DNA of 59,181 nt, counting the filler, from Nemertoderma westbladi (Eukaryota > Animalia > Xenacoelomorpha), in NCBI GenBank assembly GCA_032718475.1. It is 2 parts of 2 records of this genome, joined end to end, with 100 filler letters (N's around TTAATTAATTAA, not from the genome) between each part and the next. Parts side by side here need not be neighbours in the genome. Positions count along the whole stretch, not along the records: positions 1 to 31,313 come from JAUCBJ010004008.1; 1 more part is not named here. One strand, 5' to 3'. A program made the position numbers and the translations under genes. How positions within the stretch are numbered: the stretch's first letter is position 1; every line of letters starts with the position of its first letter. Below the pieces are notes generated by a model, which saw nothing but the letters and a program-made list of their open reading frames with translations, did no database searches and was not told the origin of the DNA. Positions 6,298 through 43,759 of the stretch are shown here, piece by piece.

Positions 6298-6981
6298 TTA
6301 TGTGCCCTCTTCGTCATCATTTATCGCCCTTGTAAATACCATTTGAGTTTGACTTCCACAGCGGACTCTGTACCACACGGTGGTTGCAACCACAAGGTTT
6401 GCGAATAAACATATGAACCCCAAAGCCGCAGCAGATTGGACCAATCCGCTCGTGTGGACAGTCTTCCAATCAGAGTAAACACGTGCGGATACCACGTTTA
6501 GATTGACCAATAGTGATGAAGCAATTACATAAAAAGCAGATAGTATTAAACTTAGGGAAATCTCAACCCAATGCCATGGTATAACCATAATTTCTATTAA
6601 TGAAGTCAAGTTTATGAAAACAAAACCGAATGATATACCAATATTAAGAACGCTTACAAATATATACACGCGAATTCTCTCGTTCATTGGTAATTCTAAC
6701 ATACTGTTTCCATGGTAACGTCCAATCAACGAGTTGATTAGTCCAATAACCCCACAAGTTAATGACACTAGTTTAAAACAACCGGGTACAGTCTGTATGT
6801 AAGACGGATTGTATCGCAGACGAATTATGTTTGGAGGGTCATTTAATCTCAGATAATCCGGGTGTAACAAAGAAGGTTTGCGAGATTGTTGTTGATACGG
6901 CGTTCTTGTTTCATAACTAGTTGTTGATTTGCTGGAGTCGTTGCCTTGGTGACATAGTGGTTGGTCTCCAGTCTGGTTCAT
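6298..6981 (-). CDS. MARVEL-domain tetraspan membrane protein (CMTM/plasmolipin-like), intronless, 227 aa
   Basis: YIQTVPGCFKLVSLTCGVIGLI matches the MARVEL start motif (Y..T.PG.LK); four hydrophobic helices; PWHWVEI..S..LSAFY.IAS and SAAALGFI motifs. Confidence 0.82.
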   Translation of the reverse strand: MNQTGDQPLCHQGNDSSKSTTSYETRTPYQQQSRKPSLLHPDYLRLNDPPNIIRLRYNPSYIQTVPGCFKLVSLTCGVIGLINSLIGRYHGNSMLELPMNERIRVYIFVSVLNIGISFGFVFINLTSLIEIMVIPWHWVEISLSLILSAFYVIASSLLVNLNVVSARVYSDWKTVHTSGLVQSAAALGFICLFANLVVATTVWYRVRCGSQTQMVFTRAINDDEEGT

Positions 6982-7159
6982 TCTTATTTGAAAACGTCCA
7001 ATAGTAAACGTCCAATGGTATATAATATAGTATATTTAATGGTTTATAATTAGCAATCTTAATACTGTAATAAAGAATAATTATAAAATTAACATAATTA
7101 ATATTCGCGAAATAAAATTCAGCAGTGAATAGGGTTGGGGTTGGTGCGCGAAAAAAATT

Positions 7160-14383: not shown

Positions 14384-15163
14384 TTACAAAAAGTTTGCGG
14401 TTGGTTTGCTGAAGCCGTGTAGATGTGGCGACGAAAAAAATATAGAACCACAAGCGACGAGGAAAAAGCAAAGGTAACTCACGAGCAGAATCCTATCGAG
14501 GCACATCGCGACGAACTTCCATTCTCCTTTCCCTCGCTCGAACTCCTCCTGGGTGCGGAACGTGTATGCGATGTAGTTAACCGATATCAAGGCGCGATGC
14601 AGGTCCGGGGACAGTATGTCCTGCGTACGCGGTCGTCGCACGCGATCCTTCGGGAACTCCAACAGCACCTCCCGTCCCCACGGCGACCGGCGCGGCATGA
14701 TGACGTCATCGTCAGTCAGCTGTTCCCACAAGGCGTCGCATCCGGCTGGCTGTGGGATCACGTTGATCACGTGTTCCATGGACGGCCGTTTCAGCCCGAG
14801 GAACCGAGGTAAAGGACCGTTGGTTAGGAACATATGGTGTAGCCAATCGGGCATCGCTTGGTTGCTAGGGTTACGCCAATATATGTTGATGACTAACACG
14901 CTGACAGCAATACTGGCGCCGACCATACACATAGACGAAATAATGAAGGTAATAATGAGAGGCACACTTGTCGCGGTGCGTGGTACGTATTCCGATGTGA
15001 TAATTAGAGGCAAAGTCAGGGAAACCAATAAGGATATAGATATTCCCATCTTCTCCCCGCTCTCGCAGGGCAAATAGAATACCAAAACAGATAGTATCAT
15101 TGTGATTATAACTGGTAGTAACAGGTTGACTTCGTAGAACAATGGTTTCCGTCGCAAATGAAG
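14384..15163 (-). CDS. Nicotinic-acetylcholine-receptor-like Cys-loop subunit, exon 4 of 4 (M1-M4); gene = join(25703-25491, 22824-22571, 15710-15494, 15163-14384), 487 aa
   Basis: Acceptor TTTTAACAG|CTT; LHLRRKPLFYEVNLLLP, LPCESGEKM, VPRTATSVPLI, MPDWL, EWKFVAMCLDRILL. Confidence 0.93.
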   Translation of the reverse strand, partial: LHLRRKPLFYEVNLLLPVIITMILSVLVFYLPCESGEKMGISISLLVSLTLPLIITSEYVPRTATSVPLIITFIISSMCMVGASIAVSVLVINIYWRNPSNQAMPDWLHHMFLTNGPLPRFLGLKRPSMEHVINVIPQPAGCDALWEQLTDDDVIMPRRSPWGREVLLEFPKDRVRRPRTQDILSPDLHRALISVNYIAYTFRTQEEFERGKGEWKFVAMCLDRILLVSYLCFFLVACGSIFFSSPHLHGFSKPTANFL

Positions 15164-15493: not shown

Positions 15494-15710
15494 CATGTAA
15501 GTGATAGCACTGAATTCATCATCCCTCCCAGGTTGCTTCCATACCCTATTAACCGCAACCATATGAACTATTTCCCATTCAACACTCTCGTAATAAGAGT
15601 TTCTGTATATCGGGGGGTTGGCGGTCGATGATATCAACAGCAGTTGTTCACGAGTAAACTTCCACGAAACAAAGGTTATGTTACATATTTGTTCGTCGTA
15701 GGGAAAGAAT
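15494..15710 (-). CDS. nAChR-like subunit exon 3 (second half of Cys-loop, loops B and C)
   Basis: TTATAG|A TTC TTT CCC TAC GAC GAA CAA ATA TGT completes CQIDAEFFPYDEQIC (C-x13-C) with exon 2 in phase 2; SWKF, ESVEWEI; donor ATG|GTTGGT, phase 0. Confidence 0.9.
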
Positions 15711-16436
15711 CTATAATTACAAATAATTTAGTCGTCAAATGTCTGTGTAATGTACAACGTAGGTGGTGGGAAAACATCATTTAGTTAGAAACAATACAAT
15801 TTCCTTATCGAGTGTCAGATTACTAGCATGAGCTATCTGCAGTTCAGTGGCAAGAGTATTTATATCTCCTAGAAATATATTCAGTATAATATACTGACAT
15901 TCTCATTTTATTTATAAACTTTCATATTTTTTATTATTATTACTTTTATAATTTTTTTACTAAACAAAATTTGGGGAATCTATGTCAATAATATGTACCG
16001 GTATATAGATACATGAGCGAGTATTGAGTAACACTGAACATATTACCAGTGATGTTATACACAATGTTCGTCAGGAAAGCTGAGAGCTCAGTCGAAGTTT
16101 AGAGGAGGCCAAAGGTTAGATGTATAGTAGCTGGACCTGCAGTTCTAATGAAGCATCGGGTTTAATAAAATCATCTTTCCAAGCAATAATAATAAATTAT
16201 TGGCCTGGTGATGATATTTGAACTTCAGCAATAAATTATTATTAGGACCGGGACACAATCTAGACTAGAGATTGTTGGGTTTAAAACAAATTAAAGTTAA
16301 CAAAAACATAACAAATTATTTATTTAAATATACATGAAAAATAGATAATTACAGCGATAAAAACAATAATTAATTGCATTGCACAAGCAAAACCATAAAA
16401 CATCCGCGACGAAGCCACACGGTTACATAAATTATG

Positions 16437-18014
16437 TTACGGTCCATTCCAATGCCGAACTCTGAGTATCTTAAACTCTTCGTTTTCTACACGCAGTGTT
16501 ACTTTACGCGTTGGTTTCGTTTTAACGTTTTGTTTCGGTTTCGGCGGTAGGATTCTATTAGTAACAGAGTTCTGTTTACTTTCTATAGGAGAATGTTTGC
16601 CGCCATCGGTACTAGTGTCGTCGCAATGAATGGAAACCGTAACTTTTCTTATTCGAAAATAAAACATTGAACTGCCAACTAAAATCATTAGTAAAATAAA
16701 CTTCCAGGAAAAAATTAAATAAAATAATGTGAGAATTCGCTGGGATTGTAAAATAAAAAATATTGCACGTATAATGAGACAGGTCAACGAGGTGGGAATA
16801 TATTCGGAATAGGGTAACGTTACCATCGATGTAACGTTGGTTACAGAGACCAGGGCTGTTGATGTAACAACTACTGGGATCCTATGGGGATAGTAGCTTA
16901 GTCTGAGGTCGTTATGGTTGTCCAGGTTACCGAATGCTGCTAAGGTCCATTGAGGCAACTGTGGGTCACTGGTGGATGAATTAGCGCCCATCTTCACCTC
17001 CTGGTCTGCCGCCCAGTAATGGTAGAGCTGATTGTTCAGACAGGACTGGAGTTTTCTACGACACCGAGCTGGCTGACTAACGAAGCCCTTATTGGAGACC
17101 CCAATAACGTCGCATTCGTCTCCGTAAAGGTTCACTAAATCTCGACTTAGTAGCAAGATATTCCAGGAAGTTATTTCTACTTGAGGGAAGTCGCAACTTC
17201 CAGTTCCTCTACACAAAATATCCGCTGGAATAATAACGTATTTATTGTGCAGGAACAAACTTGGAGGGAAAAACATTGAGTTAACCCAAATACTATCACT
17301 CGAGTTCGATTGAGTGACAGATAATCCTTCGACTTTATTGGAGGTAACGACGGCCGTAAAGATATTGTACCTCAACGGGTGTTCGGTTAGACAATGTATC
17401 GAGTGCTTCTTTAGGGGAGCTCGACATAAATAGCGATCTCTGTCGGCAACCAAACAGTCGCAAGCGAATCCCATAGGAACCTCGCTCTTACTCACTCCGC
17501 AGTAGCGTTCTATAGCGAGGGAATTATTGTCCTCTCTTTTTGCGTCGTGAACTTCCTCGGAAGCTCCATAGGTTACGGATTCTACCGGCAATAAGTTTAT
17601 TTCTTGCGATACGGAGCCGGTTAATTGCCCGTGGATTGGTTGGAATTGGGGATGGATTAGTTGGAGACGGAATGGTAACATAGCAACGGAGACATAGGCG
17701 ATATTAGCGAGACTGTCAGTGTCAGACAGCAGGAGTTCAACTCGAGAAGATTGCTGGACAATTTCAGACTTCCATTGACAACTTATTGTAACAAGACAAT
17801 AACTGCCCTCAGCTGTGACTAAATTACAACCGGGAGCAAAAGCAACCATGCCGGTGTCGTTAGTGGGTATCGTAAACGTAGACGAAGGCCTACCGGTACC
17901 GGTCGTAGGGACAATATCTTCTGCGACGTATGTATAAATCAGGAAGCCAATGAACGCAAATAAACATGATATTATAATCAGCGGAAGTCCAAAGGGAAGT
18001 ACCTTGAGATTCAT
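16437..18014 (-). CDS. HAP2: Divergent HAP2/GCS1 (fusexin, class II fusogen)-like protein, intronless, 525 aa, nested in intron 2 of the nAChR-like gene
   Basis: ILLLSRDLVNLYGDECDVIGVSNKGFVSQPARCRRKLQSCLNNQLYHYWAAD matches the HAP2-GCS1 core (G.EC.KIGV...F..Q...C......CL.NQL). Upstream GFACDC and HCLT...RYNIF match the HAP2 GFCC.C and HCL.....Y..F motifs. N-terminal hydrophobic segment, C-terminal TM and basic tail; AATAAA (minus) at 16319-16324. Confidence 0.8.
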   Translation of the reverse strand: MNLKVLPFGLPLIIISCLFAFIGFLIYTYVAEDIVPTTGTGRPSSTFTIPTNDTGMVAFAPGCNLVTAEGSYCLVTISCQWKSEIVQQSSRVELLLSDTDSLANIAYVSVAMLPFRLQLIHPQFQPIHGQLTGSVSQEINLLPVESVTYGASEEVHDAKREDNNSLAIERYCGVSKSEVPMGFACDCLVADRDRYLCRAPLKKHSIHCLTEHPLRYNIFTAVVTSNKVEGLSVTQSNSSDSIWVNSMFFPPSLFLHNKYVIIPADILCRGTGSCDFPQVEITSWNILLLSRDLVNLYGDECDVIGVSNKGFVSQPARCRRKLQSCLNNQLYHYWAADQEVKMGANSSTSDPQLPQWTLAAFGNLDNHNDLRLSYYPHRIPVVVTSTALVSVTNVTSMVTLPYSEYIPTSLTCLIIRAIFFILQSQRILTLFYLIFSWKFILLMILVGSSMFYFRIRKVTVSIHCDDTSTDGGKHSPIESKQNSVTNRILPPKPKQNVKTKPTRKVTLRVENEEFKILRVRHWNGP

Positions 18015-18719
18015 ATCACCATAGGCCTATACTGCTATATCATCAGTATATTTAATAATTAACAGTTCCATCGCCTCATTTGTTAGCCTAACCGCCAAAT
18101 CCTGGTGGTATGGTGTCGTTTAGTGCTGTAGTGTTAGTGTAAACATATTTTAAGTTTGATCATAAATCTTCTGATACCGGCAGACCGGCAAACCGGTAAT
18201 CATCATGGCTGGTTTCTGCAACTTGGCACTTGCAGATTGGGAACACAGCTGCACAGAATATCTGAATATTGCAGTATCATAATATTTCAGTATAGCAGTT
18301 AGTACTGCAGCAGTACTACAGTCTGTCAGTAGTAGTGGTGGGGTGGTGAGTGTGAGTTGTGAGTGGCAGGTATCCAGTACAGTGCAGTACACAGTATGTA
18401 GGTATGCATTGCATAGGTACATCAGGCTCTATCGTAAATCCGCACCCGTACCCTTGATAAAAACCGTTCCCCCCTCGCCAAATCTTGTGGGAACGCTCCA
18501 AAAATTTAACAATCATTTTTCAACCTATATTGACCAACTTAAAACAAAAAAAATCATCTTTTTCCGCTTCGCGCAGCACGAAACATATTCATTAATTTTT
18601 GTTTTTTTCTGAATTTTACTTTTTTTCAAACGTCTAATGCAAAGTATTTTACTCAATTTTCCTCCAACTAAAAAGGTATGTAGACACCCTGACCTGTTGT
18701 TTTGATCATTAATGGTTAA

Positions 18720-19370
18720 ATATCGTTTATAGTTTTGGTTAGAAAAGCCTGCCTCTGTAACCTGTTTCTTTCCCTCAATTGGTATCAATATCGTTTATTG
18801 TATTGATTCAGATCAGCCTGCCTCCATAACCTGTTCCTTTCCCTCAATTGGTAACAATATCGTTTCTTGTTTCGGTTAGAAAAGCCTGCCTCTGTATAAC
18901 CTATCGTTTATTGTTTTGGTTATAAAAGCCTGCCTCTGTAATTGGTAACAATATCGTTTATTGTTTTGGTGAGATAAGCCTGCCTCTGTAACCTGTTCCT
19001 TTCCCTCAATTGGTAACAACATCGTTTATTGTTTTGGTTAGAAAAGCCTGCCTCTGTAACCTGTCAATATCGTTTATTGTTTTGGTTATAAAAGCCTGCC
19101 TCTGTAACCTGTCAATATCGTTTATTGATTGGTGAGATAAGCCTGCCTCTGTAACCTGTTCCTTTCCCTCAATTGGTAACAACATCGTTTATTGTTTTGG
19201 TTAGAAAAGCCTGCCTATATAACCTGTCAATATCGTTTATTGCTTTGGTTAGAAAAGCCTGCCTCTTTAACCTGTTCCTTTCCCTCTATTGTTAACAATA
19301 TTGTTTATTGTTTTGGTTAGAAAAGGCTGCCTCTGTAACCTGCTCCTTGCCCTCAATTGGTAACAATATT
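18720..19370. repeat. Tandem array (~50-68 bp units, ATCGTTTATTGTTTTGGTTAGAAAAGCCTGCCTCTGTAACCTG), left arm of a large inverted structure
   Basis: Direct reading; reverse-complement array at 21478-21995; isolated copies near 2280 and 23540. Confidence 0.85.
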
Positions 19371-19777
19371 ATTAATATTATATAAAAAAAGGCTGCCACC
19401 GATGCTGAATCGCGAAATACCTTATACGGTAAAAAAATATAAAACAGTTTTGAAAAAATAATTTAAATTTTTTTCCCGATTTTTTCCCGTAATCCCAAAC
19501 TTCCCGAAAATATCAGAGTGTTTTCCCACAGAGAGCCGGCTAGTAACTGAATTGTTAAAAAAACTGAGTCTTTTCCCAGAGAGACCTGTTTTTCGAGCAA
19601 AAAAATTATATCCACGGATACGGAGTAACCGTATTTGTAACCGTAATTGTGTACTAAATTTTAAGAAATCCTTTGATAACAATGTCTATAACAGTATAAA
19701 GCAATACCAAACCAACGGACTTCGCTAGCGAAGTCGGATGAAGGGGTGTGCCAGTCCTGTAGTATAGTAGTCCTTGG

Positions 19778-20980
19778 TAGGAACACATCATGAGTTGGTG
19801 CTTGGGATTGGTTAATAGACTAATATTTGATTGGACGTTGAAATCATGTAAGGAATGGAGATAGGGGTCGAACTAGTGTAAGGTTTTATTTTTACTTACT
19901 GTAGATTGCAGGTTGAGACAAAGTGTTCCAAACGCTGTAAGGAATGGAGAAATTGGGTGAAATCATGTAGGGGTTATTATACCAACAGTATTAGAAGAGT
20001 AGGCTAGCAGTAGCAGTTGACATTAGCCTAGTCAGTAGGCCTATAATAGAACATTGTTGTTATGGTATATACAGGGTTGCATACTTATGCTAAAACAATT
20101 GGAACATTGACTACTAGGACAGTAGGATCTAGGGATACATTCCTTTTTACACAGAGTTCAAATGTTGGACTGTAGGTTTGCTTAGGAATAGTCTGTCTGC
20201 TATTCGTCTGCAGCCAATTGCACTAGCGCGCCGACGAGTAGCTCTTACAACATGAAGTAAAACAGATGCCAGCTGGCCGACCTCATGGTACTTGATATGT
20301 CTCAACGCGCACAAACGCGCCGTAGAAACCCGTCGATAAACATCAATGCAAATCGAATAAATGCTAAACATCATTTGCAACATTTATTGAGTGTATTATT
20401 GAGAGTTTATTTCATTGGAATATTTATCTTTACAAATTGTAAAATGCTTTTAAATATGAACATCAAATGAAAAAATTTCAATATTAAATACTATCAATAA
20501 AGCTAGCTACTCTATTACTACAATCTTTTCCATCAGAGAAATCAAGGAAAATGCTCTGTAAAACGATACCTTATACTTCGTTATTTGTTATATTGTTATT
20601 CGTATATATTTTTACTGTTACCTGACAATGAATCGTTTAATAGGCAGATAATCCTTACATGATTTCTCCCAATTTCTCCATTCCTAGCGTTTGGAACACT
20701 TTCTACTTCTCTTTTTATTATAGGCCTACTGACTAGGCTAATGTCACCTACTGCTGCTAGCCTAGTCTTCTATAGTACTGTTGGTATAATAACCCTTACA
20801 TGATTTCACCCATTTTCTCCATTGGAACACTTTGTCTCTATGTACCTGCCATATCTACAGTAAGTGAAAGAAACCCGTACAATAGTTCGACCCCTCTCCA
20901 TTCCCTACATGAATTCAACATCCAATCAAAATATAGCTCATTAACCAATCCCCCAAGCACCACTTCATGATGTGTTCCTA
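19778..20980. mobile_element. Palindromic element with ~300-bp degenerate inverted arms
   Basis: TAGGAACACATCATGAG..GGGGTCGAACTA (19778-19875) is inverted at 20882-20980; TAGCCTAGTCAGTAGGCCTATAATA is inverted at 20715-20740. Confidence 0.75.
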
Positions 20981-21477
20981 GTAGTGTAAGAATTGGGAAT
21001 ACGCTACCGGTACATCATAAGCGCTGTCTGTCTGTAGCTCAAGGACTTGCTGCAGCTGTATAGGTTGATAGGGCCTACAGGCTACAGGCTACAGCTAGGC
21101 CACAACAGCATAATACAAAGGCAGTGATTTTTTATGTCCTTTTATTTGACTTTTTTTGTCCTTTTTTTTTACGAATTATGCATAATGACTTTTGTTGTCC
21201 TTTTAATGACTTTTGTTGTCCTTTTAATGACTTTTATTGTCCTTTTAATGACTTTTTATGTATGTATTTCTTCAAACTGTCAGACTGCTGATTTCTGGAC
21301 TGTCAGACAGTTGATTTCACTATGCCTGTGCCAAAACATTCCATGATTCCATGATTTATAGACTATGAGATAGATTTCCATATGCGCCTGTGGTAAAAAG
21401 ACTCTATATTTAATAGTTTGTGGTTGTTGTCGATATAATCGATTACCACATGACGTAGCAAAACACTCATTTTATAG

Positions 21478-21995
21478 CCAAAAACAATTACCAATTGATG
21501 GAAAGGAGCAGGTTAAGGCGGAGTTTTCTAACCAAAACAATAAACAGTCACTTTACCAAATCAGGGAAAGGAGCAGGTTACAGAGACGGGATTTTCTAAC
21601 CAAAACAATAAACGATCACTTAACTAATTGAGGGAAAGGAGCAGGTTACAGAGGCGGGATTTTCTAACCAAAACAATAAACGATCACTTAACTTATTGAG
21701 GGAAAGGAGCAGGTTACAGAGGCGGGATTTTCTAACCAAAACAATAAATGATCATTTAACTAATTGAGGAAAAGGGACAGGTTACAGAGGCGGAATTTTC
21801 TAACCAAAACAATAAACGATCACTTAACTAATTGAGGGAAAGGAGCAGGTTACAGAGGCGGGATTTTCTAACCAAAACAATAAACGATCATTTAACTAAT
21901 TGAGGGAAAGGGGCAGGTTACAGAGGCGGGATTTTCTAACCAAAACAATAAACGATCATTTAACTAATTGAGGGAAAGGAGCAGGTTACAGAGAC
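21478..21995. repeat. Tandem array (~68 bp, AACCAAAACAATAAACGATCACTTAACTAATTGAGGGAAAGGAGCAGGTTACAGAGGCGGGATTTTCT), inverse of 18720-19370
   Basis: Direct reading. Confidence 0.85.
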
Positions 21996-22570
21996 GATAA
22001 AACTAATACAGTAATAGGCCTAAATTATGTGAAAGGTATATCCACATTTTCCACAATCCTGCAATCCAGTTTGCCCTATCAATTATTTAAAATTTATTAG
22101 CACAACCGGTAGGCCTACCATTACCGTATTTAAATGGTAGGCTACACAGTAGGCCTATAGCAGTACCGGTGCCGGTACCGGTACTAAAATACAGAAATAC
22201 CTGCTTTATACCTACATCTGTACATACAATACAGCAAAATAGTGCTATATATACTAATACCGGTACTGATAGCCTGAGAGAACAGCAGTAGAGAAACCGG
22301 TAGCATGGAACCTAACATTAGACTTTTGGAGGACATAAAAAATAAAAAAAAAAGGACAAAAAAAGGATTTAAACGGACAATAAAAATTATTGCGTAATAC
22401 AAATACATAGGCCGTTGGACTGACAGTAATGCGGTCTGAGAGCTGTACGTACAGTTGTAAGTGGATTGCAGTTAGTAAGAAAGACAGAAAGAGAGTGACT
22501 TGACTATTGACTACATTTCCTAGAAAATCATATAAAAAACGACCTCAATGTGAATATATAATCTACTTAC

Positions 22571-22824
22571 TCGGCATCTATTTGGCATTTGAGTTTGAAT
22601 ATTCCCGGTGGACTCCAGTAGACTGTATTCCCAGGTTGTATGAGTGCGCGACATTGGAATGAGAAGGTATTTTGTCCATCAATAGAGTCTAAAACTATAA
22701 CAGGAGGCTTCCATATTTCTTCTATTAGATAATGGAAATATTTGTCTTGGAGTTTTGTATTATTCCATTCGGTAAACCTTTGGTCCTTCCAGGTAATTGT
22801 TGGATACAACGACATTGTGATCCT
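22571..22824 (-). CDS. nAChR-like subunit exon 2
   Basis: Acceptor CTTCCTCCAG|AGG; RITMSLYPTITWKDQRF, IWKPPVIV, VYWSPPGIFKLKC; donor GA|GTAAGT, phase 2. Confidence 0.9.
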
Positions 22825-23104: not shown

Positions 23105-23670
23105 TATAACGCCCATGTGAAGAATACCAGGATTTCACTTTTCGGTCGACTTTTTATTGGAATTTTATATATGAAGAAGCAGCAGCCTGAAGTAGCAGCT
23201 TGGTCTAGTGGTGACATTACTGTGCTTCCGATTAGGGAGCCCGGGTTCGATCCCTAGATGGGGCAGCACTGTTTGGGCACAGTGCGTTAAATGCTGCAGC
23301 CTAGCCCAACCCCGACTTTCATCCTTCAGTGGTCGATAAATGGGAACCAAGGTAACTTGGGAAACAGAAGGGTTTACTGTGGAAGATCACCCATGGTGGT
23401 GAACAGGCATTCCTTGGCTTAACGAGCCTAAAAGATTCTCCCATTCATATATGAAGATTTTTTATTTTTTTTTAATTTATCTTTATTAAGTGTTTTATAG
23501 CGCTTATTTCTGTCTTATAACCTGTACATATACTAATTTGTTTATTGTTTTGGTTAGATTCAGCCCTTCTGTAACCTGTATTTTTGGTATTCTGGTATTC
23601 TTCACATGGGAGTAACTGCAAAGTGAAATATAACGGCAGAAAGTCTGGTATACTTCACATGGACCGTTTA
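23105..23670. mobile_element. Small MITE-like element (CCCATGTGAAGAATACCAG inverted repeats) hosting a SINE
   Basis: CCCATGTGAAGAATACCAG at ~23112 is inverted at ~23592-23610 and ~23645-23662. Confidence 0.55.
23178..23446 (+). mobile_element. tRNA-derived SINE with a Deu/Nin-like central domain
   Basis: A box TGGTCTAGTGG, B box GGTTCGATCCC, then CTTTCATCCTTCAGTGGTCGATAAATG resembling the Deu/Nin SINE core; 11-bp direct repeat ATATATGAAGA at 23167-23177 and 23447-23457. Confidence 0.8.
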
Positions 23671-25490: not shown

Positions 25491-25703
25491 CTCCTCTTTC
25501 TCTTCAATGTCGACAATTTGTGTTAAGGTTATATCAAATGTTACGGGAATTTGATCAGTAGTTGGGCGAATGTCTTTGTTATAGTTCTTGAAATGTCCTC
25601 TATAAACCGCCAAAGCGTAATGGTCATCGTGTTCCGGTCCAGTGTAACCATTAGCAACATCAACCCAAACAAATAATAATGTCACTGCAATTATAACTTC
25701 CAT
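25491..25703 (-). CDS. nAChR-like subunit exon 1 (signal peptide, N-terminus)
   Basis: MEVIIAVTLLFVWVDVANG signal peptide; NYNKDIRP, VTFDITLTQIVDIEEKEE; donor GAG|GTTAGT, phase 0. Confidence 0.88.
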
Positions 25704-25895
25704 CGATGAGATTAATTGGGTTCCGTCTGTGAATATTTCCCGCTACTAAACATTTCCTGAACCTATCTAACTAATAATTAATTTCGTATCCAATATGTTA
25801 TTTGCCTAATAATTTACTTTTCCAATAACAAATTTATTTACTGAGTTATATATCCAATAGATACGGTACTAGTCAAATAAATTAGTTATCCAATG

Positions 25896-28800
25896 AGGTA
25901 CTTATCCAATAAGTTACTTATCCAATAAGTTACTTATCCAATAAGTTACTTATCCAATAAGTTACTTATCCAATAAGTTACTTATCCAGTAAGTTACTTA
26001 TCCAATAAGTTACTTATCCAGTAAGTTACTTATCCAATAAGTTACTTATCCAATAAGTTACTTATCCAATAAGTTACTTATCCAATAAGTTATTTATCCA
26101 ATAAGTTACTTATCCAATAAGTTACTTACCCAATAAGTTACTTATCCAATAAGTTACTTATCCAATAAGTTACTTATCCAATAAGTTATTTATCCAATAA
26201 GTTACTTATCCAATAAGTTACTTATCCAATAAGTTACTCATCCAATAAGTTACTCATCCAATAAGTTACTTATCCAATAAGTTACTTATCCAATAAGTTA
26301 CTTATCCAATAAGTTACTTATCCAATAAGTTACTTATCCAATAAGTTACTTATCCAATAAGTTACTTATCCAATAAGTTATTTATCCAATAAGATACTTA
26401 TCCAATAAGTTACTTATCCAATAAGTTACTTATCCAATAAGTTACTTATCCAATAAGTTACTTATCCAATAAGTTACTTATCCAATAAGTTACTTATCCA
26501 ATAAGTTACTTATCCAATAAGTTACTTATCCAATAAGTTACTTATCCAATAAGTTACTTATCCAATAAGTTACTTATCCAATAAGTTACTTATCCAATAA
26601 GTTACTTATCCAATAAGTTACTTATCCAATAAGTTACTTATCCAATAAGTTACTTATCCAATAAGTTATTTATCCAATAAGATACTTATCCAATAAGTTA
26701 CTTATCCAATAAGTTACTTATCCAATAAGTTACTTATCCAATAAGTTACTTATCCAATAAGTTACTTATCCAATAAGTTACTTATCCAATAAGTTACTTA
26801 TCCAATAAGTTACTTATCCAATAAGTTACTTATCCAATAAGTTACTTATCCAATAAGTTACTTATCCAATAAGTTACTTATCCAATAAGTTACTTATCCA
26901 ATAAGTTACTTATCCAATAAGTTACTTATCCAATAAGTTACTTATCCAATAAGTTACTTATCCAATAAGTTATTTATCCAATAAGATACTTATCCAATAA
27001 GTTACTTATCCAATAAGTTACTTATCCAATAAGTTACTTATCCAATAAGTTACTTATCCAATAAGTTATTTATCCAATAAGTTACTTATCCAATAAGTTA
27101 CTTATCCAATAAGTTACTTATCCAATAAGTTACTTATCCAATAAGTTACTTATCCAATAAGTTACTTATCCAATAAGTTACTTATCCAATAAGTTACTTA
27201 TCCAATAAGTTACTTATCCAATAAGTTACTTATCCAATAAGTTACTTATCCAATAAGTTATTTATCCAATAAGATACTTATCCAATAAGTTACTTATCCA
27301 ATAAGTTACTTATCCAATAAGTTACTTATCCAATAAGTTACTTACTTCCAATAAGTTACTTATCCAATAAGTTACTTATCCAATAAGTTACTTATCCAAT
27401 AAGTTACTTATCCAATAAGTTACTTATCCAATAAGTTACTTATCCAATAAGTTACTTATCCAATAAGTTACTTATCCAATAAGTTACTTATCCAATAAGT
27501 TACTTATCCAATAAGTTACTTATCCAATAAGTTACTTATCCAATAAGTTACTTATCCAATAAGTTACTTATCCAATAAGTTACTTATCCAATAAGTTACT
27601 TATCCAATAAGTTACTTATCCAATAAGTTACTTATCCAATAAGTTACTTATCCAATAAGTTACTTATCCAATAAGTTACTTATCCAATAAGTTACTTATC
27701 CAATAAGTTACTTATCCAATAAGTTACTTATCCAATAAGTTACTTATCCAATAAGTTACTTATCCAATAAGTTACTTATCCAATAAGTTACTTATCCAAT
27801 AAGTTACTTATCCAATAAGTTACTTATCCAATAAGTTACTTATCCAATAAGTTACTTATCCAATAAGTTACTTATCCAATAAGTTACTTATCCAATAAGT
27901 TACTTATCCAATAAGTTACTTATCCAATAAGTTACTTATCCAATAAGTTACTTATCCAATAAGTTACTTATCCAATAAGTTACTTATCCAATAAGTTACT
28001 TATCCAATAAGTTACTTATCCAATAAGTTACTTATCCAATAAGTTACTTATCCAATAAGTTACTTATCCAATAAGTTACTTATCCAATAAGTTACTTATC
28101 CAATAAGTTACTTATCCAATAAGTTACTTATCCAATAAGTTACTTATCCAATAAGTTACTTATCCAATAAGTTACTTATCCAATAAGTTACTTATCCAAT
28201 AAGTTACTTATCCAATAAGTTACTTATCCAATAAGTTACTTATCCAATAAGTTACTTATCCAATAAGTTACTTATCCAATAAGTTACTTATCCAATAAGT
28301 TACTTATCCAATAAGTTACTTATCCAATAAGTTACTTATCCAATAAGTTACTTATCCAATAAGTTACTTATCCAATAAGTTACTTATCCAATAAGTTACT
28401 TATCCAATAAGTTACTTATCCAATAAGTTACTTATCCAATAAGTTACTTATCCAATAAGTTACTTATCCAATAAGTTACTTATCCAATAAGTTACTTATC
28501 CAATAAGTTACTTATCCAATAAGTTACTTATCCAATAAGTTACTTATCCAATAAGTTACTTATCCAATAAGTTACTTATCCAATAAGTTACTTATCCAAT
28601 AAGTTACTTATCCAATAAGTTACTTATCCAATAAGTTACTTATCCAATAAGTTACTTATCCAATAAGTTACTTATCCAATAAGTTACTTATCCAATAAGT
28701 TACTTATCCAATAAGTTACTTATCCAATAAGTTACTTATCCAATAAGTTACTTATCCAATAAGTTACTTATCCAATAAGTTACTTATCCAATAAGTTACT

Positions 28801-30513
28801 TATCCAATAAGTTACTTATCCAATAAGTTACTTATCCAATAAGTTACTTATCCAATAAGTTACTTATCCAATAAGTTACTTATCCAATAAGTTACTTATC
28901 CAATAAGTTACTTATCCAATAAGTTACTTATCCAATAAGTTACTTATCCAATAAGTTACTTAGCTTATCCAATAAGTTACTTATCCAATAAGTTACTTAT
29001 CCAATAAGTTACTTATCCAATAAGTTACTTATCCAATAAGTTACTTATCCAATAAGTTACTTATCCAATAAGTTACTTATCCAATAAGTTACTTATCCAA
29101 TAAGTTACTTATCCAATAAGTTACTTATCCAATAAGTTACTTATCCAATAAGTTACTTATCCAATAAGATACTTATCCAATAAGTTACTTATCCAATAAA
29201 TTACTTATCCAATAAGTTACTTATCCAATAAGTTACTTATCCAATAAGTTACTTATCCAATAAGTTACTTATCCAATAAGTTACTTATCCAATAAGTTAC
29301 TTACTTATCCAATAAGTTACTTACTTATCCAATAAGTTACTTACTTATCCAGTAAGTTACTTATCCAATAAGTTACTTATCCAATAAGTTACTTATCCAA
29401 TAAGTTACTTATCCAATAAGTTACTTATCCAATAAGTTACTTATCCAATAAGTTACTTATCCAATAAGTTACTTATCCAATAAGTTACTTATCCAATAAG
29501 TTACTTATCCAATAAGATACTTATCCAATAAGTTACTTATCCAATAAGTTACTTATCCAATAAGTTACTTATCCAATAAGTTACTTATCCAATAAGTTAC
29601 TTATCCAATAAGTTACTTATCCAATAAGTTACTTATCCAATAAGTTACTTACTTATCCAATAAGTTACTTACTTATCCAATAAGTTACTTATCCAATAAG
29701 TTACTTATCCAATAAGTTACTTATCCAATAAGTTACTTATCCAATAAGTTACTTATCCAATAAGTTACTTATCCAATAAGTTACTTATCCAATAAGTTAC
29801 TTATCCAATAAGTTACTTACTTATCCAATAAGCTTACTTATCCAATAAGTTACTTATCCAATAAGTTACTTATCCAATAAGTTACTTATCCAATAAGTTA
29901 CTTATCCAATAAGTTACTTATCCAATAAGTTACTTATCCAATAAGTTACTTATCCAATAAGTTACTTATCCAATAAGTTACTTATCCAATAAGTTACTTA
30001 TCCAATAAGTTACTTATCCAATAAGTTACTTATCCAATAAGTTACTTACTTATCCAATAAGTTACTTATCCAATAAGTTACTTATCCAATAAGTTACTTA
30101 TCCAATAAGTTACTTATCCAATAAGTTACTTATCCAATAAGTTACTTATCCAATAAGTTACTTATCCAATAAGTTACTTATCCAATAAGTTACTTACTTA
30201 TCCAATAAGTTACTTATCCAATAAGTTACTTATCCAATAAGTTACTTATCCAATAAGTTACTTATCCAATAAGTTACTTATCCAATAAGTTACTTATCCA
30301 ATAAGTTACTTATCCAATAAGTTACTTCTATCCAATAAGTTACTTATCCAATAAGTTACTTATCCAATAAGTTACTTATCCAATAAGTTACTTATCCAAT
30401 AAGTTACTTATCCAATAAGTTACTTATCCAATAAGTTACTTATCCAATAAGTTACTTATCCAATAAGTTACTTATCCAATAAGTTACTTATCCAATAAGT
30501 TACTTATCCAATC
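25896..30513. repeat. 4.6-kb satellite of 16-bp unit TATCCAATAAGTTACT (~290 copies)
   Basis: Direct reading; degenerate monomers from ~25785. Confidence 0.97.
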
Positions 30514-31413
30514 AGCAAAAACCGCCACGCCTAGCTAGCAGTATTATTTTTACTGCAATCACCAATGCAGCAATGATTTTTACTAAAAAAAACTTTAAAA
30601 AAACATATTAAAAATTTTATAAATTTATAAATTAAAAGCAAAAAAGCAATCAACACTCATTTTATAAGTCCCAAACCAGCAAACAGATGAACTGGTACTT
30701 GTAAAGCTTCCAAGAGTTAATATAAGGCGATATTGCTTCTGGTCTGACAGGCTAATAATAACCGGCCAGTACAATATCCTAATTCCTCACAGTTGGTAGG
30801 CTGAGATATTGGGATACCCAATATAGTCTCAAACTCCATTACCCACCATACCTTTTATATTAAACCCGCCAACCCACCACTACTAGAGACAGAAAGGCTT
30901 ACAACTACACAGACATGGAATGGGGTATTAAAGCACCAGGTAGCTTCACTGGTGTACCATAGCTAAATATATGTAATGTTGTTTATAATAATTTGAGGTA
31001 ATGTGAACTGACAGGGTCGATATTGCTTGTGGAGCTTGTCAAAATGATACCTCGGGTAATTAGGTTTAGGTAGAGTGAGTTATAGCGAAGAGTACTAAAT
31101 TTTTATTTTATTATTTAATAAAATATTGAGAAATTAAATCGCCTTTCTAGTCTAGACTAAAACATAAATATATTTGCTTCATTGTGAGTAAATCTATAGC
31201 ACTTTAACGGGATTATTACAATCGCAGTCGTTTTATAATCCGAGCGAGTAGAATTAGTAGAGCGTAAGCGAAACGTTTTAGTGATTATTGTAAAATAAAA
31301 TGTAAAGTGATTTNNNNNNNNNNNNNNNNNNNNNNNNNNNNNNNNNNNNNNNNNNNNTTAATTAATTAANNNNNNNNNNNNNNNNNNNNNNNNNNNNNNN
31401 NNNNNNNNNNNNN

Positions 31414-32383
31414 AAATATTACTATTCGGGTGAACCTTTTGGAGTTCGTGAGAATAAAATGAGCCCTTTATTATAGCTCCGGTGCTGTCCTTAATATCGA
31501 ACATTACCGCTGGTACTCTATCCAACCTAACCCGATGAATAATAAATAATTCACGTGTCCATTGTTCTCGATAGCCTTTAGCAAAAGCAGTACGAACAAT
31601 AGATAATCGTACTGTATCTCCAACTTTAAATTTTATTTTCTTGTGATTTATCTGTCTATATTTCCCATATAATCTATTCATTAATTCAGTTTCATTAAAT
31701 TTATTAACTTCAATGGGAGTCATTTTTATTGTCCTATGATACGACCTATTATAAGCCGAGATAAGCTTAGGTAAAATTTTTATCCAAATATTATTTCCCC
31801 TCTGGGTGAAAATTTTGAACATCTTTGTTTTTAATGTGCGATTGAATCTCTCAACAATAGCCGCCTTATTCACAGAGTACATTACGTAATACTGTATACC
31901 TAACGTATCTAAATATTTCCTTACAGATTTATTTAGAAACTCAGACCCTTGATCAGTGGCGATTCTGTTTGGTTTTCCTTTCTGGAATATTTTTTGCAAT
32001 ATACTAATAATTTCATCACCCTTTTTTGTTTTCATAGCATAGCCAAAAGCAAGCCGACTGAAGGCATCAATGCATGTTAATATATAGTTATAATTATTAT
32101 TTTGTGACTTATATTGCTGCATATCCACCAGATCTATCATATATATATCTTTTATGCCTCCCGTAAATATTTTAGATGTTGGATAATGTTGTCTACGTGG
32201 AGCGTGAAGGGTGTATGTCTTTTGTCCGCTCAACCATTTCTGGGCTTGCGTCGGTTTGATGTTTGCAGCTTTTGCTAATTTTGCAACACTTGCAAATCCT
32301 GCGGGGGATGAAGGATCTAAATAAATTCTTAACAGTTTTTTGTCTAAGCTTCGGCTTAAAATCGGTTTCATCTTGCGAGGCAT
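31414..32383 (-). CDS. Polinton-type retroviral-like (rve) DDE integrase, C-terminus lost in N gap
   Basis: IYLDPSSPAGF..WLSGQKTYTLH; YMIDLVDM (D), IATDQGSEF (D), VERFNRTLK (E); AYNRSYHRTIKMTP; KFKVGDTVR; KGYREQWTRELF; GSFYSHELQ. Confidence 0.92.
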
Positions 32384-32434
32384 CTTTTCGACAACCACAA
32401 GTAATATGTATATTCAAATCTCTTATAAAGGGCA

Positions 32435-32605
32435 TCACCGTAAGAACAATTGAAATTTTTTAATTATTTTCTTCGAAGTTGATGTTTTAAAGGGTTTTCT
32501 TTTTGTAGTATTTACTCTAGGTATATCTTGTGGTTTTAAATCAGTAGCTAACGGTTTACTCGATACTAAATATAATTTTCTAAATGTTACTCCCGTTTTA
32601 ACCAT
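32435..32605 (-). CDS. Putative 56-aa basic Polinton ORF (MVKTGVTFRKLYLVSSK...), below ORF-track cut-off
   Basis: Fills the gap between the GG-motif gene and the integrase on the same strand; ATG preceded by TAATA; the RKLYLV start resembles the KKM.LVP start of the protein at this position in Mavericks. Confidence 0.45.
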   Translation of the reverse strand: MVKTGVTFRKLYLVSSKPLATDLKPQDIPRVNTTKRKPFKTSTSKKIIKKFQLFLR

Positions 32606-32611
32606 TATTAC

Positions 32612-32995
32612 CTACCGTCCACGGTTAATTTTTTTCGCAATAGCCGCCCCAGCGGCAGCGGCCCCGGCACTCGCGGCTAGTTTCGCACCAATGCCGAGTA
32701 AGGGTATTAGAAACGGTAGTATGCCTCCAGATTGATTGCTTAACTTTTTTCTGTAACTTGATATATTTTTTGTCTTACGGTTGAGTGATTTCAATACCTT
32801 CTTATAGCGGCGAATATTTCTAAATGAATGAGGGGTCAATTGTACATTACCTTTTAGAACATTTAATGCAGTATTTACAATGAGCCGTATTAATTCGTTA
32901 CTGGCGGTATGGTTAATAAAATAAGTTCTTTGTTGAGGGGTAGCGCTGCGTAGAAATTCCAGTTCGTTACGATATTTCTGCACAAGTCTATTCAT
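32612..32995 (-). CDS. Polinton/adintovirus small basic core protein with GG cleavage motif and amphipathic C-terminal peptide
   Basis: ALNVLKGNVQLT..IRRYKKVLKSL..QSGGILPFLIPLLG matches the conserved Maverick protein found downstream of the ATPase. Confidence 0.8.
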   Translation of the reverse strand: MNRLVQKYRNELEFLRSATPQQRTYFINHTASNELIRLIVNTALNVLKGNVQLTPHSFRNIRRYKKVLKSLNRKTKNISSYRKKLSNQSGGILPFLIPLLGIGAKLAASAGAAAAGAAIAKKINRGR

Positions 32996-33032
32996 TGTTG
33001 CAACATTATTGAAAATTGTTACAAAATATTAA

Positions 33033-33710
33033 TTATTTATCATTATTATTATTATTTTCGCTACGTTTATAGTCAGTGTAATTTTTAATGTAACAATTAT
33101 GATTACGAAATATATCAGATCTAAATCTTAAATGTTCGGGTGTTTCCTGTCGTAAATCAATTAAGAAATGTGAAAATGGCTCAATTGTCGCATCTTGATA
33201 GGAATCAACTAAAAATTTAGTCTGCCCTGGTAACATCTGCTTCGCGAAATTTAAAACCGATAGACTGTCTCTCGGATTTTTCATTAATACTAAAGTATGG
33301 CTATTAATTGATCTTGTGCGGTTATGCTTCCCACCGTAAAACATGTTTTGCGTTATAAAACAAATAAATATATTGGAATGATGAGCTACCTTAGTAAACA
33401 ATACAGTTAATGCTGTACTGGACTCAGTTTCTGTTAACAAATCATCTATAATTAATAAATCTCGACTATTGACTAATCTATCTATATTTTCAGGCAAACC
33501 TTTGTAAAGGTGAGTAATACCAGGAATAGTCGGGGGATTGCTCCCGTAACAATACAATACTCGCAAAGGGGCTTCGTTGAAGCAGCCATTCTTGTGTTTA
33601 ATTAAATTCCCCACAAAGGTTGACTTTCCGGAGCCAGATGGCCCTGAAATTATCATACTCGTTCCCATTTGAAAGTTTAAATTATATGGGCCTGAATTAA
33701 AGTCAGCCAT
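33033..33710 (-). CDS. FtsK/HerA-superfamily (A32-like) DNA packaging ATPase
   Basis: Walker A ISGPSGSGKST, Walker B LLIIDDLL, LFTKVAHHSN, FITQN, LMKNPRD, YQDATIEPFSHFLIDL. Confidence 0.9.
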   Translation of the reverse strand: MADFNSGPYNLNFQMGTSMIISGPSGSGKSTFVGNLIKHKNGCFNEAPLRVLYCYGSNPPTIPGITHLYKGLPENIDRLVNSRDLLIIDDLLTETESSTALTVLFTKVAHHSNIFICFITQNMFYGGKHNRTRSINSHTLVLMKNPRDSLSVLNFAKQMLPGQTKFLVDSYQDATIEPFSHFLIDLRQETPEHLRFRSDIFRNHNCYIKNYTDYKRSENNNNNDK

Positions 33711-33923
33711 TTATTATTATTATTAAGATATATCAACAATACAATATAATATAATATCAATATCAATAAACCAACACCATTACTATGTATATAACAATAA
33801 TTGATGCAACTACAATAATATTAGAGTACTGTATATTTAATTAACATATGCCACAACTACAGTATGTGACGCTCGCCGCAGCAAAAGGTGCTATTTCCAA
33901 TTATAGTATAGACCGATGTAATT

Positions 33924-34376
33924 TCAAGCATGGTGAGCATCTTTATACACGAAATAATGATAGGTAACATCAGCGGTTTGGAAATCACTTCCCGAGAATT
34001 TCGCGCTTATGATTTTTTTATGTTCGCTGCTAAAAAAATAAGGAATATAGTAGCAACAGCGTCGTACTACGTTTCTATAAAAAATATTCTCCAATATTGT
34101 AAATAAATCTCCGGGATCATTACTTTTCGCAGAAATATAAGTTATATTGCGAAGCTCTTTCCAATAAAAGGGTTGGTATCTTGCCAACTTTATATTAAAC
34201 TTAGATATGGGAGCGCGACAAATAGGACAAATTTTAGAACAATAATTATTCATTTCGGAATATTGTACAATACATTGTACGCAAGTTGCATGTTTATTTT
34301 CACATTTATAATAATCTCGATGTTTTTGCAATAACTTAGAATAGCAAACTGGACATTTTTCATTTAAAATATCCAT
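33924..34376 (-). CDS. C3HC4 RING-finger protein (viral accessory, putative E3 ligase)
   Basis: CPVC..CENKHATCVQC..CPICRAPI. Confidence 0.78.
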   Translation of the reverse strand: MDILNEKCPVCYSKLLQKHRDYYKCENKHATCVQCIVQYSEMNNYCSKICPICRAPISKFNIKLARYQPFYWKELRNITYISAKSNDPGDLFTILENIFYRNVVRRCCYYIPYFFSSEHKKIISAKFSGSDFQTADVTYHYFVYKDAHHA

Positions 34377-34566
34377 TTTCCAAATTTTAAAGTAAATTGA
34401 AAATAATTACCGTAATACACAACAACAACAACAACAACAAACAAAACTGTTATACTGTATATACAAATACTACTACAATTTTCGATTATTTAAAAACAAC
34501 AAAATTTTATATATAATCATAAAATATTTATAATATAGAGGGAATAGTCAAGAATCAATGATATTA

Positions 34567-34995
34567 TCATAAATATTCAACATTATCCACTGATTCTTCA
34601 GGTTCGATAAAGGATTCTTTTGAAATCATTACAATAAAGAAAGACATAATTTCGTAGGGGCTATGTCGATTTAGCCGTATTTCAAACTTTTCACCAGCTT
34701 CGTTGTATTGTGTAATAAAAATAAATCCTTCTATCATGGCTAATAGTAAGATGCTGGTTAATTTTCCTCCCTCATGCTCAGGTTTCAGGTTGTAATCTAA
34801 AAGATGAATACTATTATCTGAAGCATCAATATCGATTGAGCTTAAAACTTTCCTGGCTTTTTCAGAAAACTCAATTTTATATTTATCATCTCCCTGACGG
34901 TAAATTGTATAATCAATAACAATATAGGCATGACCATCTTCTGCAAAAAATGAATGCCTTACTATTGGCATAACCATATCGGAATCAGAAGACAT
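34567..34995 (-). CDS. Polinton-borne acidic orphan ORF, 142 aa
   Basis: ATG preceded by AT-rich AAATA, TATA-like TTATATATAA ~95 bp upstream, co-oriented with neighbouring viral ORFs; no family recognised. Confidence 0.6.
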   Translation of the reverse strand: MSSDSDMVMPIVRHSFFAEDGHAYIVIDYTIYRQGDDKYKIEFSEKARKVLSSIDIDASDNSIHLLDYNLKPEHEGGKLTSILLLAMIEGFIFITQYNEAGEKFEIRLNRHSPYEIMSFFIVMISKESFIEPEESVDNVEYL

Positions 34996-35982
34996 TATTT
35001 AATTTATTTTATTGTAAATCAAACAAACAAAGTAAAAACTTTTAAACTAAAACCATTACAAATGATTAATTGCGATTAAAGCGAGAGATTATATATAAGA
35101 TATTTTCAAAAATAATACAGGTCTTAAACTGGAAAATAGCCTAAATTCGGTTTATTGATTGGTTGATTAGCCGGTGGGTAACTACTGTACAGTACAGTAC
35201 AATTAAATAAAAAATTACGGTCAAGGTTGAGTAACTATGGAAATGTTTGTATACGTGTAGCTGGAAACGTGGCGGAATTTCAACACGTATCCTACTGCTT
35301 GGTTTGTTGATTTGGCGACAGCAGTTGTGGAGTTGGCAATCAATATAATATATGCTGTAGTTGGTGGCCACGTTGTCAGCATATACAGTATACAGTGGTT
35401 GGTTGCGTGGTGGTAACGTGGTGAAAAGGTGAATAACCGTAGGGTTAGGCAAACATCACCGTTGATTGGTTGGTTGGTGGGTGGGTAACAGCTGTGGATT
35501 GAGTAGCGACGGGATGGGGGGCTAGCCATGCATTGTGAGGTTAGGCTATGTGAAGATGAATATGCAATGGTTGGTGAAAAATAGCGATTTGAAAAATAGT
35601 AGAAGTTACCTGTAGACACCTCTAGCGTCTGTAAAATAAAGGTTGGTAAATATGAAAATACTGGTTGCTGAAAAATTGCGATTTGAAAAATAGTAGAAGT
35701 TACCTGATGCTAAGTGTAGACACTCGAACACCTGTAAAATAAAGGCTTATGATTGGACGGATGAGTAGCGTTGGGTGACTAATAACGCCTCTAGCGGAAG
35801 ATGCGGGAACTTGAGAAGTTGCCATGGTTACGGATTAAATGCTGACATCTGATTGGTTGAAATAATAACGACCACCGCTAAAGGTTGAAATAGTGGCTTC
35901 TGATTGGACAGAGTACCAGAAATGGATGGTAATGATGGGCTACGGGTGACCATTATCCAGTGTCATAGTATTGTATACTACT

Positions 35983-41197: not shown

Positions 41198-41425
41198 TTT
41201 AATAGTTATTTTATGAAGGCCCTGGATCAGCACCCTGTAGAGTGTAGATAGTTATTGAGTATCGTATATTGTAGGTAGTCCTACTGTACAGTAGCTATAA
41301 AAAAACTGAAAAAATTGGAAGGGGTGTTGGTATTCCAATCGTGTAGTCAGGTGTCACTTTTCATAGTTTGGAATCATGGTAAACGGACAGGTTGTATCCA
41401 GACAAGTTGTATCCAGACAAGTTGT

Positions 41426-43306: not shown

Positions 43307-43759
43307 TTGTATCCAGACAAGTTGTATCCAATTTCCTATTCTTAGCTTACAAAAGGACATTTTGTATCCCGATTTTCGGACATGTTGTATCCAACTTATT
43401 TACGTTGTAAATTAACTGTAATTCTATCCTATTGAATAATATAATTAACTAGGCGATCCATAATCATAATACTGTACATTATACGATTAATTAGTTCAGA
43501 GCATTTCTTTCTTTCTCCAATCAGGATTTCTCACTTTAATAGCATTGTGTAATGGAGGTCAAACAAATGACACTGCATCATGAATATGTAGAGGAGGTCA
43601 AACAAATGAAACTGCATCATGAATATCAACTGTAAATCCATGTAGTAACCGTTTAATATTTTAGCGATCTCGATTATATGTTCAATTTGTAAATTACATT
43701 TTAATTAATTAATTTTTAGTTATTGTACCAATACATTCTTCCTTGTATCAAAAAACTCC

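Follow-up and report, generated by a model that had tools for sequence, protein, structure and literature searches.

A HAP2 homologue in an intron of a nicotinic receptor-like gene of Nemertoderma westbladi is predicted to lack domain III

The receptor gene and the nested open reading frame

We analysed a 59,181-nucleotide (nt) stretch of the Nemertoderma westbladi genome (assembly GCA_032718475.1), which consists of parts of two records joined by filler and is referred to below as the window. On its minus strand, a gene resembling subunits of the nicotinic acetylcholine receptor (nAChR) contains, within its second intron and in the same orientation, an open reading frame (ORF) encoding a homologue of the fusogen HAP2/GCS1. 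The nested arrangement had been described in an earlier reading of the same DNA (the original prediction); the most unusual feature of the locus, the apparent absence of domain III and the stem from the HAP2 protein, was overlooked there. The coordinates of the features are listed in Table 1.

Four coding exons of the host gene, joined across three GT-AG introns of 2,666, 6,860, and 330 nt, gave an open frame of 488 codons. The original prediction that exons 2 and 3 join in phase 2 to rebuild a C-x13-C Cys-loop proved correct: the junctions are GT-AG, the frame remains open, and the only C-x13-C of the joined product, C151–C165, straddles intron 2. The Pfam positions of the ligand-binding domain are continuous over exons 1–3 (4–49, 45–130, and 129–207), and exon 4 covers positions 2–228 of the membrane domain. 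Residues 38–476 aligned to an nAChR subunit of Glandiceps with an E value of 5e-75 and 31% identity over 462 columns, and the alignment is ungapped at the junction. The host product has the C-x13-C loop, the ligand-binding domain, and the four membrane helices of Cys-loop receptors. The vicinal cysteines of loop C, which are present in the aligned Glandiceps subunit, are missing from the joined protein, and because of this absence we assign the host to the non-alpha nAChR-like subunits, with its splicing and expression deduced from the DNA. The M2 helix carries a valine at what we take to be the gate-leucine position 9′, counted from GEK. The branch of the host gene in the tree is long (3.48), which marks the organism as a fast-evolving animal; the tree did not place it.

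That exons 1–2 and exons 3–4 belong to different genes, or that the region was mis-assembled, might be suspected from the repeat content of intron 2 with its long inverted arrays. Against this stand the matching phases, the continuous Pfam positions, and the ungapped alignment to a full-length subunit; the region is free of N, and tblastn found no second copy of any host exon, and thus no spare exons, within the window. We consider such an explanation extremely improbable.

Two further observations concern the receptor genes. Positions 25876–30512 are occupied by a satellite in which a 16-bp unit occurs in 287 copies. Its nearer edge is some 170 nt 5′ of the host start codon; therefore, the receptor promoter or a 5′ exon would adjoin the satellite or lie beyond it. 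A second pentameric ligand-gated channel gene is located at 939–2072 (+), where one uninterrupted frame of some 377 codons encodes it; its M3–M4 loop is very short.

The nested ORF is, as judged from its sequence, a true HAP2/GCS1 homologue, and it lies wholly inside host intron 2 at the DNA level. The earlier claim of a same-strand HAP2-like ORF was thus upheld by profile and by fold. The match to PF10699 had an E value of 1e-21 and 77.6 bits against a curated cut-off of 27.4, and all six matches of a PDB sequence search were HAP2. An exhaustive protein search gave 40 matches at E≤1e-3, none of them below 1e-10, and neither the ORF nor alignment A1 retrieved a match in word-indexed protein searches. 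Twenty of the matches were examined and 11 clusters named, among them HAP2 of a beetle, a spider, a scallop, a nemertean, a red alga, and a slime mould, together with uncharacterised proteins of a second spider, a wasp, and two hemichordates.

The structure was modelled from a 42-row alignment, with a mean predicted local distance difference test score (pLDDT) of 67.8 and a predicted template modelling score of 0.58; a single-sequence fold was poor (pLDDT 39) and was not used. Foldseek returned nine matches at E≤1e-3, all of which were HAP2 chains. With VIA, the predicted model gave a Z score of 16.4 to 5ow4 (root-mean-square deviation 3.2, 218 residues aligned) and of 12.7–16.2 to five further HAP2 entries, and the match to HAP2 entries spans residues 75–404. 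In a tree of 31 core sequences, from which 11 of the 42 rows with a core shorter than 230 residues were omitted, the nested protein joined animal HAP2 (90/90) on a long branch of 3.04. A viral or archaeal fusexin (an endogenous viral envelope protein or Fsx1) was rejected as the identity of the ORF on the basis of this grouping and of the structure scores, which were 7.0 for the best viral protein and 5.3 for Fsx1. The viral structure library gave no match at E≤1e-3, no related locus was found in viral contigs or metagenome contigs, and the ESM Atlas yielded only leads below 0.9, mostly viral glycoproteins. No Rfam match was obtained across the window.

Eight invariant columns are kept in the nested ORF, and the PF10699 cysteines are retained. 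E153, F311, and Q314 align to conserved columns, and R192 was assigned by its R-x4-C spacing to C197; E153, R192/C197, F311, and Q314 correspond to E126, R185/C190, F376, and Q379 of Chlamydomonas HAP2 according to PMC5332557 and PMC6170185. Loop residues 188–189 are hydrophobic. The N-terminus is hydrophobic over residues 2–31, with a peak of 2.63.

Domain III and the C-terminal anchor

In the nested protein, the membrane anchor follows the CLxNQ cysteine at a distance of 79 residues when counted to the first hydrophobic helix and of 102 at most. We compared this spacing with 42 homologue rows, of which 32 have a detectable anchor and 10 do not. It was 195–272 residues in 30 of the 32; the other two were Saccoglossus (151) and the fragment P0018 (68). 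Domain III comprises about 130 residues (PMC5332557). A profile of domain III and the stem, built from 27 homologues, scored −0.9 bits against the nested ORF, whereas 26 of the 27 left-out controls scored 42.7–152 bits and one long-branch row 8.4. Among 1,662 six-frame segments of the window, the best E value for the domain III profile was 0.33. Neither a domain III signal in the 16 kb downstream nor a domain III-like stretch between the candidate donor at 16823 and host exon 3 was detected.

The closing strands of domain I align to about residue 397. The model has no domain III, and its last domain I strand (379–383) leads to helices at 410–450. The C-terminal anchor consists of a hydrophobic segment at 425–457, with another at 403–424, and is followed by a basic tail of 71 residues containing 15 K/R against 7 D/E. 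The 125 codons beyond the donor remain open, which occurred in only 2 of 20,000 shuffles, and residues 460–525 score best in frame; these results indicate that the tail of the ORF is likely coding. Splicing of the candidate 84-nt intron would give a protein with one anchor, still without domain III. We therefore predict from the ORF and the model that the nested protein keeps domains I and II and lacks domain III and the stem, a statement that holds for the genomic ORF. A literature search by title and the start of the abstract, with supplements and subscription papers outside its reach, gave no HAP2 without domain III and no xenacoelomorph HAP2.

A comparable lack of domain III signal was observed in hemichordates, which are among the groups cited as keeping HAP2 (PMC5332557, PMC13601591). 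The domain III profile scored −0.4 to −0.6 bits against HAP2 of Ptychodera flava (XP_070578829.1) and Saccoglossus kowalevskii (XP_077868997.1 and XP_006821859.1), all of which are automatic gene models. In the place of domain III, these proteins (P0009, P0015, and P0074) have an acidic, cysteine-poor stretch, and no sequence similarity to the nested protein was found in this linker region. A clade of the nested protein and hemichordate HAP2 gave p 0.315 in the approximately unbiased test, by which a shared ancestry of the domain III loss is neither rejected nor shown.

Table 1. Positions of the host gene, the nested gene, and associated features in the window.
Feature	Position	Strand	Description
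Host exon 1	25491..25703	-	Signal peptide and start of ligand-binding domain
Host exon 2	22571..22824	-	254 nt; ends within Cys-loop, phase 2
Host intron 2	15711..22570	-	GT-AG, phase 2, 6,860 nt; houses HAP2 gene
Host exon 3	15494..15710	-	Remainder of Cys-loop, loops B and C, without vicinal cysteines
Host exon 4	14384..15163	-	M1–M4 and stop
Repeat block	18715..21996		Foldback-like; between host exon 2 and nested gene
HAP2/GCS1 ORF	16437..18014	-	525 codons and stop; same strand as host
N-terminal hydrophobic helix	17925..17999	-	About residues 6–30; signal peptide or uncleaved anchor
Predicted domains I and II	16851..17843	-	About residues 58–388; E153, R192, C197, F311, Q314, and PF10699 segment
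Hydrophobic helices	16653..16805	-	About residues 404–454; start where other HAP2s begin domain III; basic residues next
Candidate intron	16740..16823	-	84 nt, in frame, GT-AG, at domain I end; would excise residues 398–425
AATAAA of nested gene	16319..16324	-	Two upstream TGTA; U/GU-rich stretch downstream; no subsequent poly(A) tract

Transcription, origin, and possible function of the nested gene

The AATAAA that the original prediction placed about 113 nt after the HAP2 stop was found at that distance, beginning at 16324, in a strong cleavage-site context. The hexamer by itself is common: it occurs in 17–23% of 150-nt windows, and the sense strand of intron 2 contains 22 copies, 16 of them upstream of the ORF. 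Among the 223 such sites in the window, the one at 16324 has the highest downstream GU content and is among the seven highest for U content, and it has at least two upstream TGTA, a feature of 16 of the 223, although the windows used for this scoring were selected after the site had been seen. These sequence features support a real polyadenylation site of the nested gene. The longest A-run after the signal is 3. At the other end of the ORF, an out-of-frame ATG lies 8 nt upstream of the HAP2 start (18014–18022, -); the frame that begins there is three codons long, and its stop codon shares bases with the main start codon.

Intron 2 is also enlarged by inverted repeat arrays, which lie upstream of the ORF and do not flank it. 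Arrays of a 68-bp unit at 18715–19376 and 21488–21996 are mutually inverted, and inner inverted arms at 19778–20051 and 20648–20980, about 270–330 bp long, are 74–85% complementary; partial copies of the 68-bp unit occur at about 2270–2344 and 23536–23579. In Drosophila, according to PMC3814207, 71.27% of nested genes are antisense and about 29% same-strand, 72.53% of the same-strand genes are single-exon and 58.46% peak in testis, and brain expression is over-represented among the hosts. Mammalian nested genes are described as only slightly biased in orientation, near half of them lying on the same strand (PMC11694760). In the light of these statistics the arrangement needs no special explanation, and by this analogy the nesting is ordinary and adds little; it probably arose by chance insertion into an intron enlarged by repeats. 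Our literature search found no report of HAP2 nested inside a receptor gene. The separation of gamete and neuron expression proposed in the original prediction is plausible in itself, but, being a common nested-gene pattern (PMC3814207), it does not stand as a special mechanism.

In our judgement there is an even chance that the locus carries an independently transcribed HAP2 gene in an intron of a non-alpha nAChR-like gene, whose product, without domain III and the stem, acts as an upright bridge between gamete membranes and not as a canonical fold-back fusogen. Transcription independent of the host is the likely part of this reading. A promoter upstream of 18014 would probably fire in germ cells, and the short transcript would end at the 16324 site, near 16300. 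Cells expressing the receptor would splice out the whole 6.9-kb intron and read through the 16324 site; such read-through would be needed anyway, since 16 sense-strand AATAAA precede the ORF in the intron, and U1 protection allows read-through of intronic AATAAA. The protein would stand on its C-terminal anchor, with the R192–E153 pair holding the short hydrophobic cd loop toward the partner membrane, and could reach the extended-intermediate state. In class II fusion as described in PMC6170185, PMC6327110, and PMC5332557, the extended intermediate has domains I and II as its core, and the subsequent fold-back of domain III clamps it and brings the stem and anchor to the fusion loops; some 2,100 square angstroms are buried by domain III, which has been proposed to render trimerisation irreversible (PMC5332557). 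Without this clamp, the nested protein would not complete the hairpin alone, and bilayer merger would need a partner or another fusogen. Domains I and II set almost directly on the anchor would thus permit a bridge but presumably not the canonical hairpin.

Several observations weigh against this reading. The main caveat is the GT donor at 16823, which coincides with the end of domain I and could lead to domain III exons out of view. The acceptor 84 nt on resembles the host acceptors, the hydrophobic stretch past the donor is AT-rich (GC 0.23–0.28), and residues 400–460 have the lowest codon score. The ORF of P0018 closes directly behind domain I with a hydrophobic tail that we interpret as intron read-through; given this boundary and the AT-rich stretch, the hydrophobic region of the nested protein could be partly intron. 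The domain III profile test is weakened on long branches because P0039, the sole control of similar branch length (2.94), scored only 8.4 bits despite having room for domain III. Residues 391–413 of the model have pLDDT values below 50. HMMER places R198, not R192, on the conserved arginine; loop 1, with 4 residues against 7–14, is the shortest of the 19 rows fitting the pattern; and only in this row of the 19 is the first CCxC cysteine replaced, here by alanine. Germ-cell expression and the bridging function are steps that we infer.

If the donor is used, the gene could be a normal three-domain HAP2 whose transcript exits at 16823 to downstream exons for domain III and the anchor; these exons would be interleaved with the host, lie outside the window, or be absent from the assembly. 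The position of the donor at the domain I/III boundary, the AT-rich stretch with an acceptor-like tract that follows it, and the end of P0018 at the same boundary fit such a protein. The 125 codons that remain open past the donor and are followed by the polyadenylation site of best context do not, nor does the lack of a domain III signal in the 16 kb downstream, and in our view a three-domain protein is quite improbable. We are doubtful also, though less strongly, about a reading in which the genome has a full-length HAP2 at another locus and the nested gene is its truncated paralogue or retrocopy, either retained for a different role or in decay. Intron-rich genomes consistently carry a HAP2 intron between strands b, c, and d (PMC6089408), which the nested ORF lacks. 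Its very long branch, lost cysteine, and minimal loop 1 also suit a decaying copy, and nested genes are often insertions of duplicates (PMC5174743). However, 525 codons are open with the eight invariant columns kept, and no poly(A) tract follows the signal. The host branch is equally long, and introns are also absent from the other ligand-gated channel gene of the window; both traits may therefore be features of the genome at large, and general intron loss would fit too, beside retroposition.

A working fusogen without domain III, in which the 15–38 residues between domain I and the anchor zip along the domain I–II trimer, is a reading that we regard as unlikely yet worth keeping in mind; in its variants, the long acidic linker of the hemichordate proteins zips, or a separate protein supplies the clamp. 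The retained tip machinery, namely E153, R192/C197, F311, Q314, the PF10699 cysteines, and hydrophobic residues 188–189, argues for it. A fully extended chain measures 0.36 nm per residue, and 38 fully extended residues reach about 13 nm. The extended intermediate spans about 15 nm (PMC6327110), so that this reach is marginal. It would be shortened by residues 404–424, which are hydrophobic and modelled as a helix, and further by splicing of the candidate intron, and the burial by domain III proposed to make trimerisation irreversible (PMC5332557) also speaks against fusion without it. In its general form, that an animal HAP2 branch represented here and in the two hemichordates dispenses with domain III and still merges gamete membranes by a stem-only zipper or a partner clamp, the proposal is likewise tentative, with the probability against it. 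A functional role of the nesting itself, either as a switch in which the promoter or polyadenylation site of the nested gene truncates the receptor in gametes or as a source of receptor–HAP2 chimeras, seems very improbable to us. The strong polyadenylation context would suit a switch, and testis expression of mammalian nested genes correlates with host isoform changes (PMC11694760). On the other side, same-strand, single-exon, testis-type genes in brain-type hosts are the common Drosophila pattern (PMC3814207), and the chimeric transcripts envisaged in the original prediction are disfavoured. Among five pyrimidine-rich acceptors in or just before the ORF, only that at 17259 is in frame with exon 2, and its use would fuse half a ligand-binding domain to half of HAP2, yielding no whole domain. 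The two AGs just 5′ of the start codon are weak and, joined to exon 2, give a stop within six codons.

How HAP2 contributes to animal fertilisation has yet to be settled (PMC5332557, PMC13601591). If the nested and hemichordate HAP2s lack domain III, some animal HAP2s may no longer be autonomous fusogens, which, if true, would be a possible step toward the loss of HAP2 in chordates. Alternatively, class II fusion might work without its clamp domain, that is, by a mechanism lacking the fold-back domain thought to be universal. If the animal is a xenacoelomorph, the loss of domain III might be a character shared with Ambulacraria. A natural domain I–II protein on a membrane anchor would make both possibilities directly testable by cell fusion.

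Other features of the window and comparison with known systems

ORFs clustered at 31358–34998 (-) include an rve integrase (E 2.6e-12) and a P-loop ATPase that matches Pox_A32 weakly, and a RING match, likewise weak, was obtained there too. We take this cluster to resemble a Polinton/Maverick-type element; two runs of N are located at 31314–31413. A reverse transcriptase ORF (RVT_1, E 4.5e-36) is present at 41383–43026 (+) and a FLYWCH-MULE transposase ORF at 43709–45223 (+). An ORF at 6298–7035 (-) matched a MARVEL domain under the curated cut-off (E 1.2e-05).

Compared with non-alpha nAChR subunits, which are pentameric ligand-gated ion channels, the host shares the Cys-loop, the four membrane helices, and GEK preceding M2, but it is highly divergent and its loop C has no vicinal cysteines. 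The arrangement resembles the same-strand nested genes of Drosophila and mammals (PMC3814207, PMC11694760) in that a single-exon gene of testis type lies in a long intron of a neuronal-type host, whereas the nested gene here belongs to an ancient family and is not a young duplicate.

The nested protein has in common with HAP2/GCS1 of known structure (PDB 5MF1, 6DBS, 6E18, 5OW3, 5OW4, and 7S0K) the domain I–II fold and the PF10699 ij-loop cage, as well as the conserved Glu, Arg, and Gln, the C-terminal anchor, and the basic tail. It differs from them in its predicted lack of domain III and the stem, which leaves it about 110–130 residues short, in its 4-residue loop 1, in having ACxC in place of CCxC, and in its long hydrophobic N-terminus, after which comes a stretch rich in Thr, Ser, and Pro. 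Hemichordate HAP2 likewise gives no domain III profile signal after domain I, but it has an acidic linker at that place (spacing 151 and 195), of which almost nothing is present in the nested protein.

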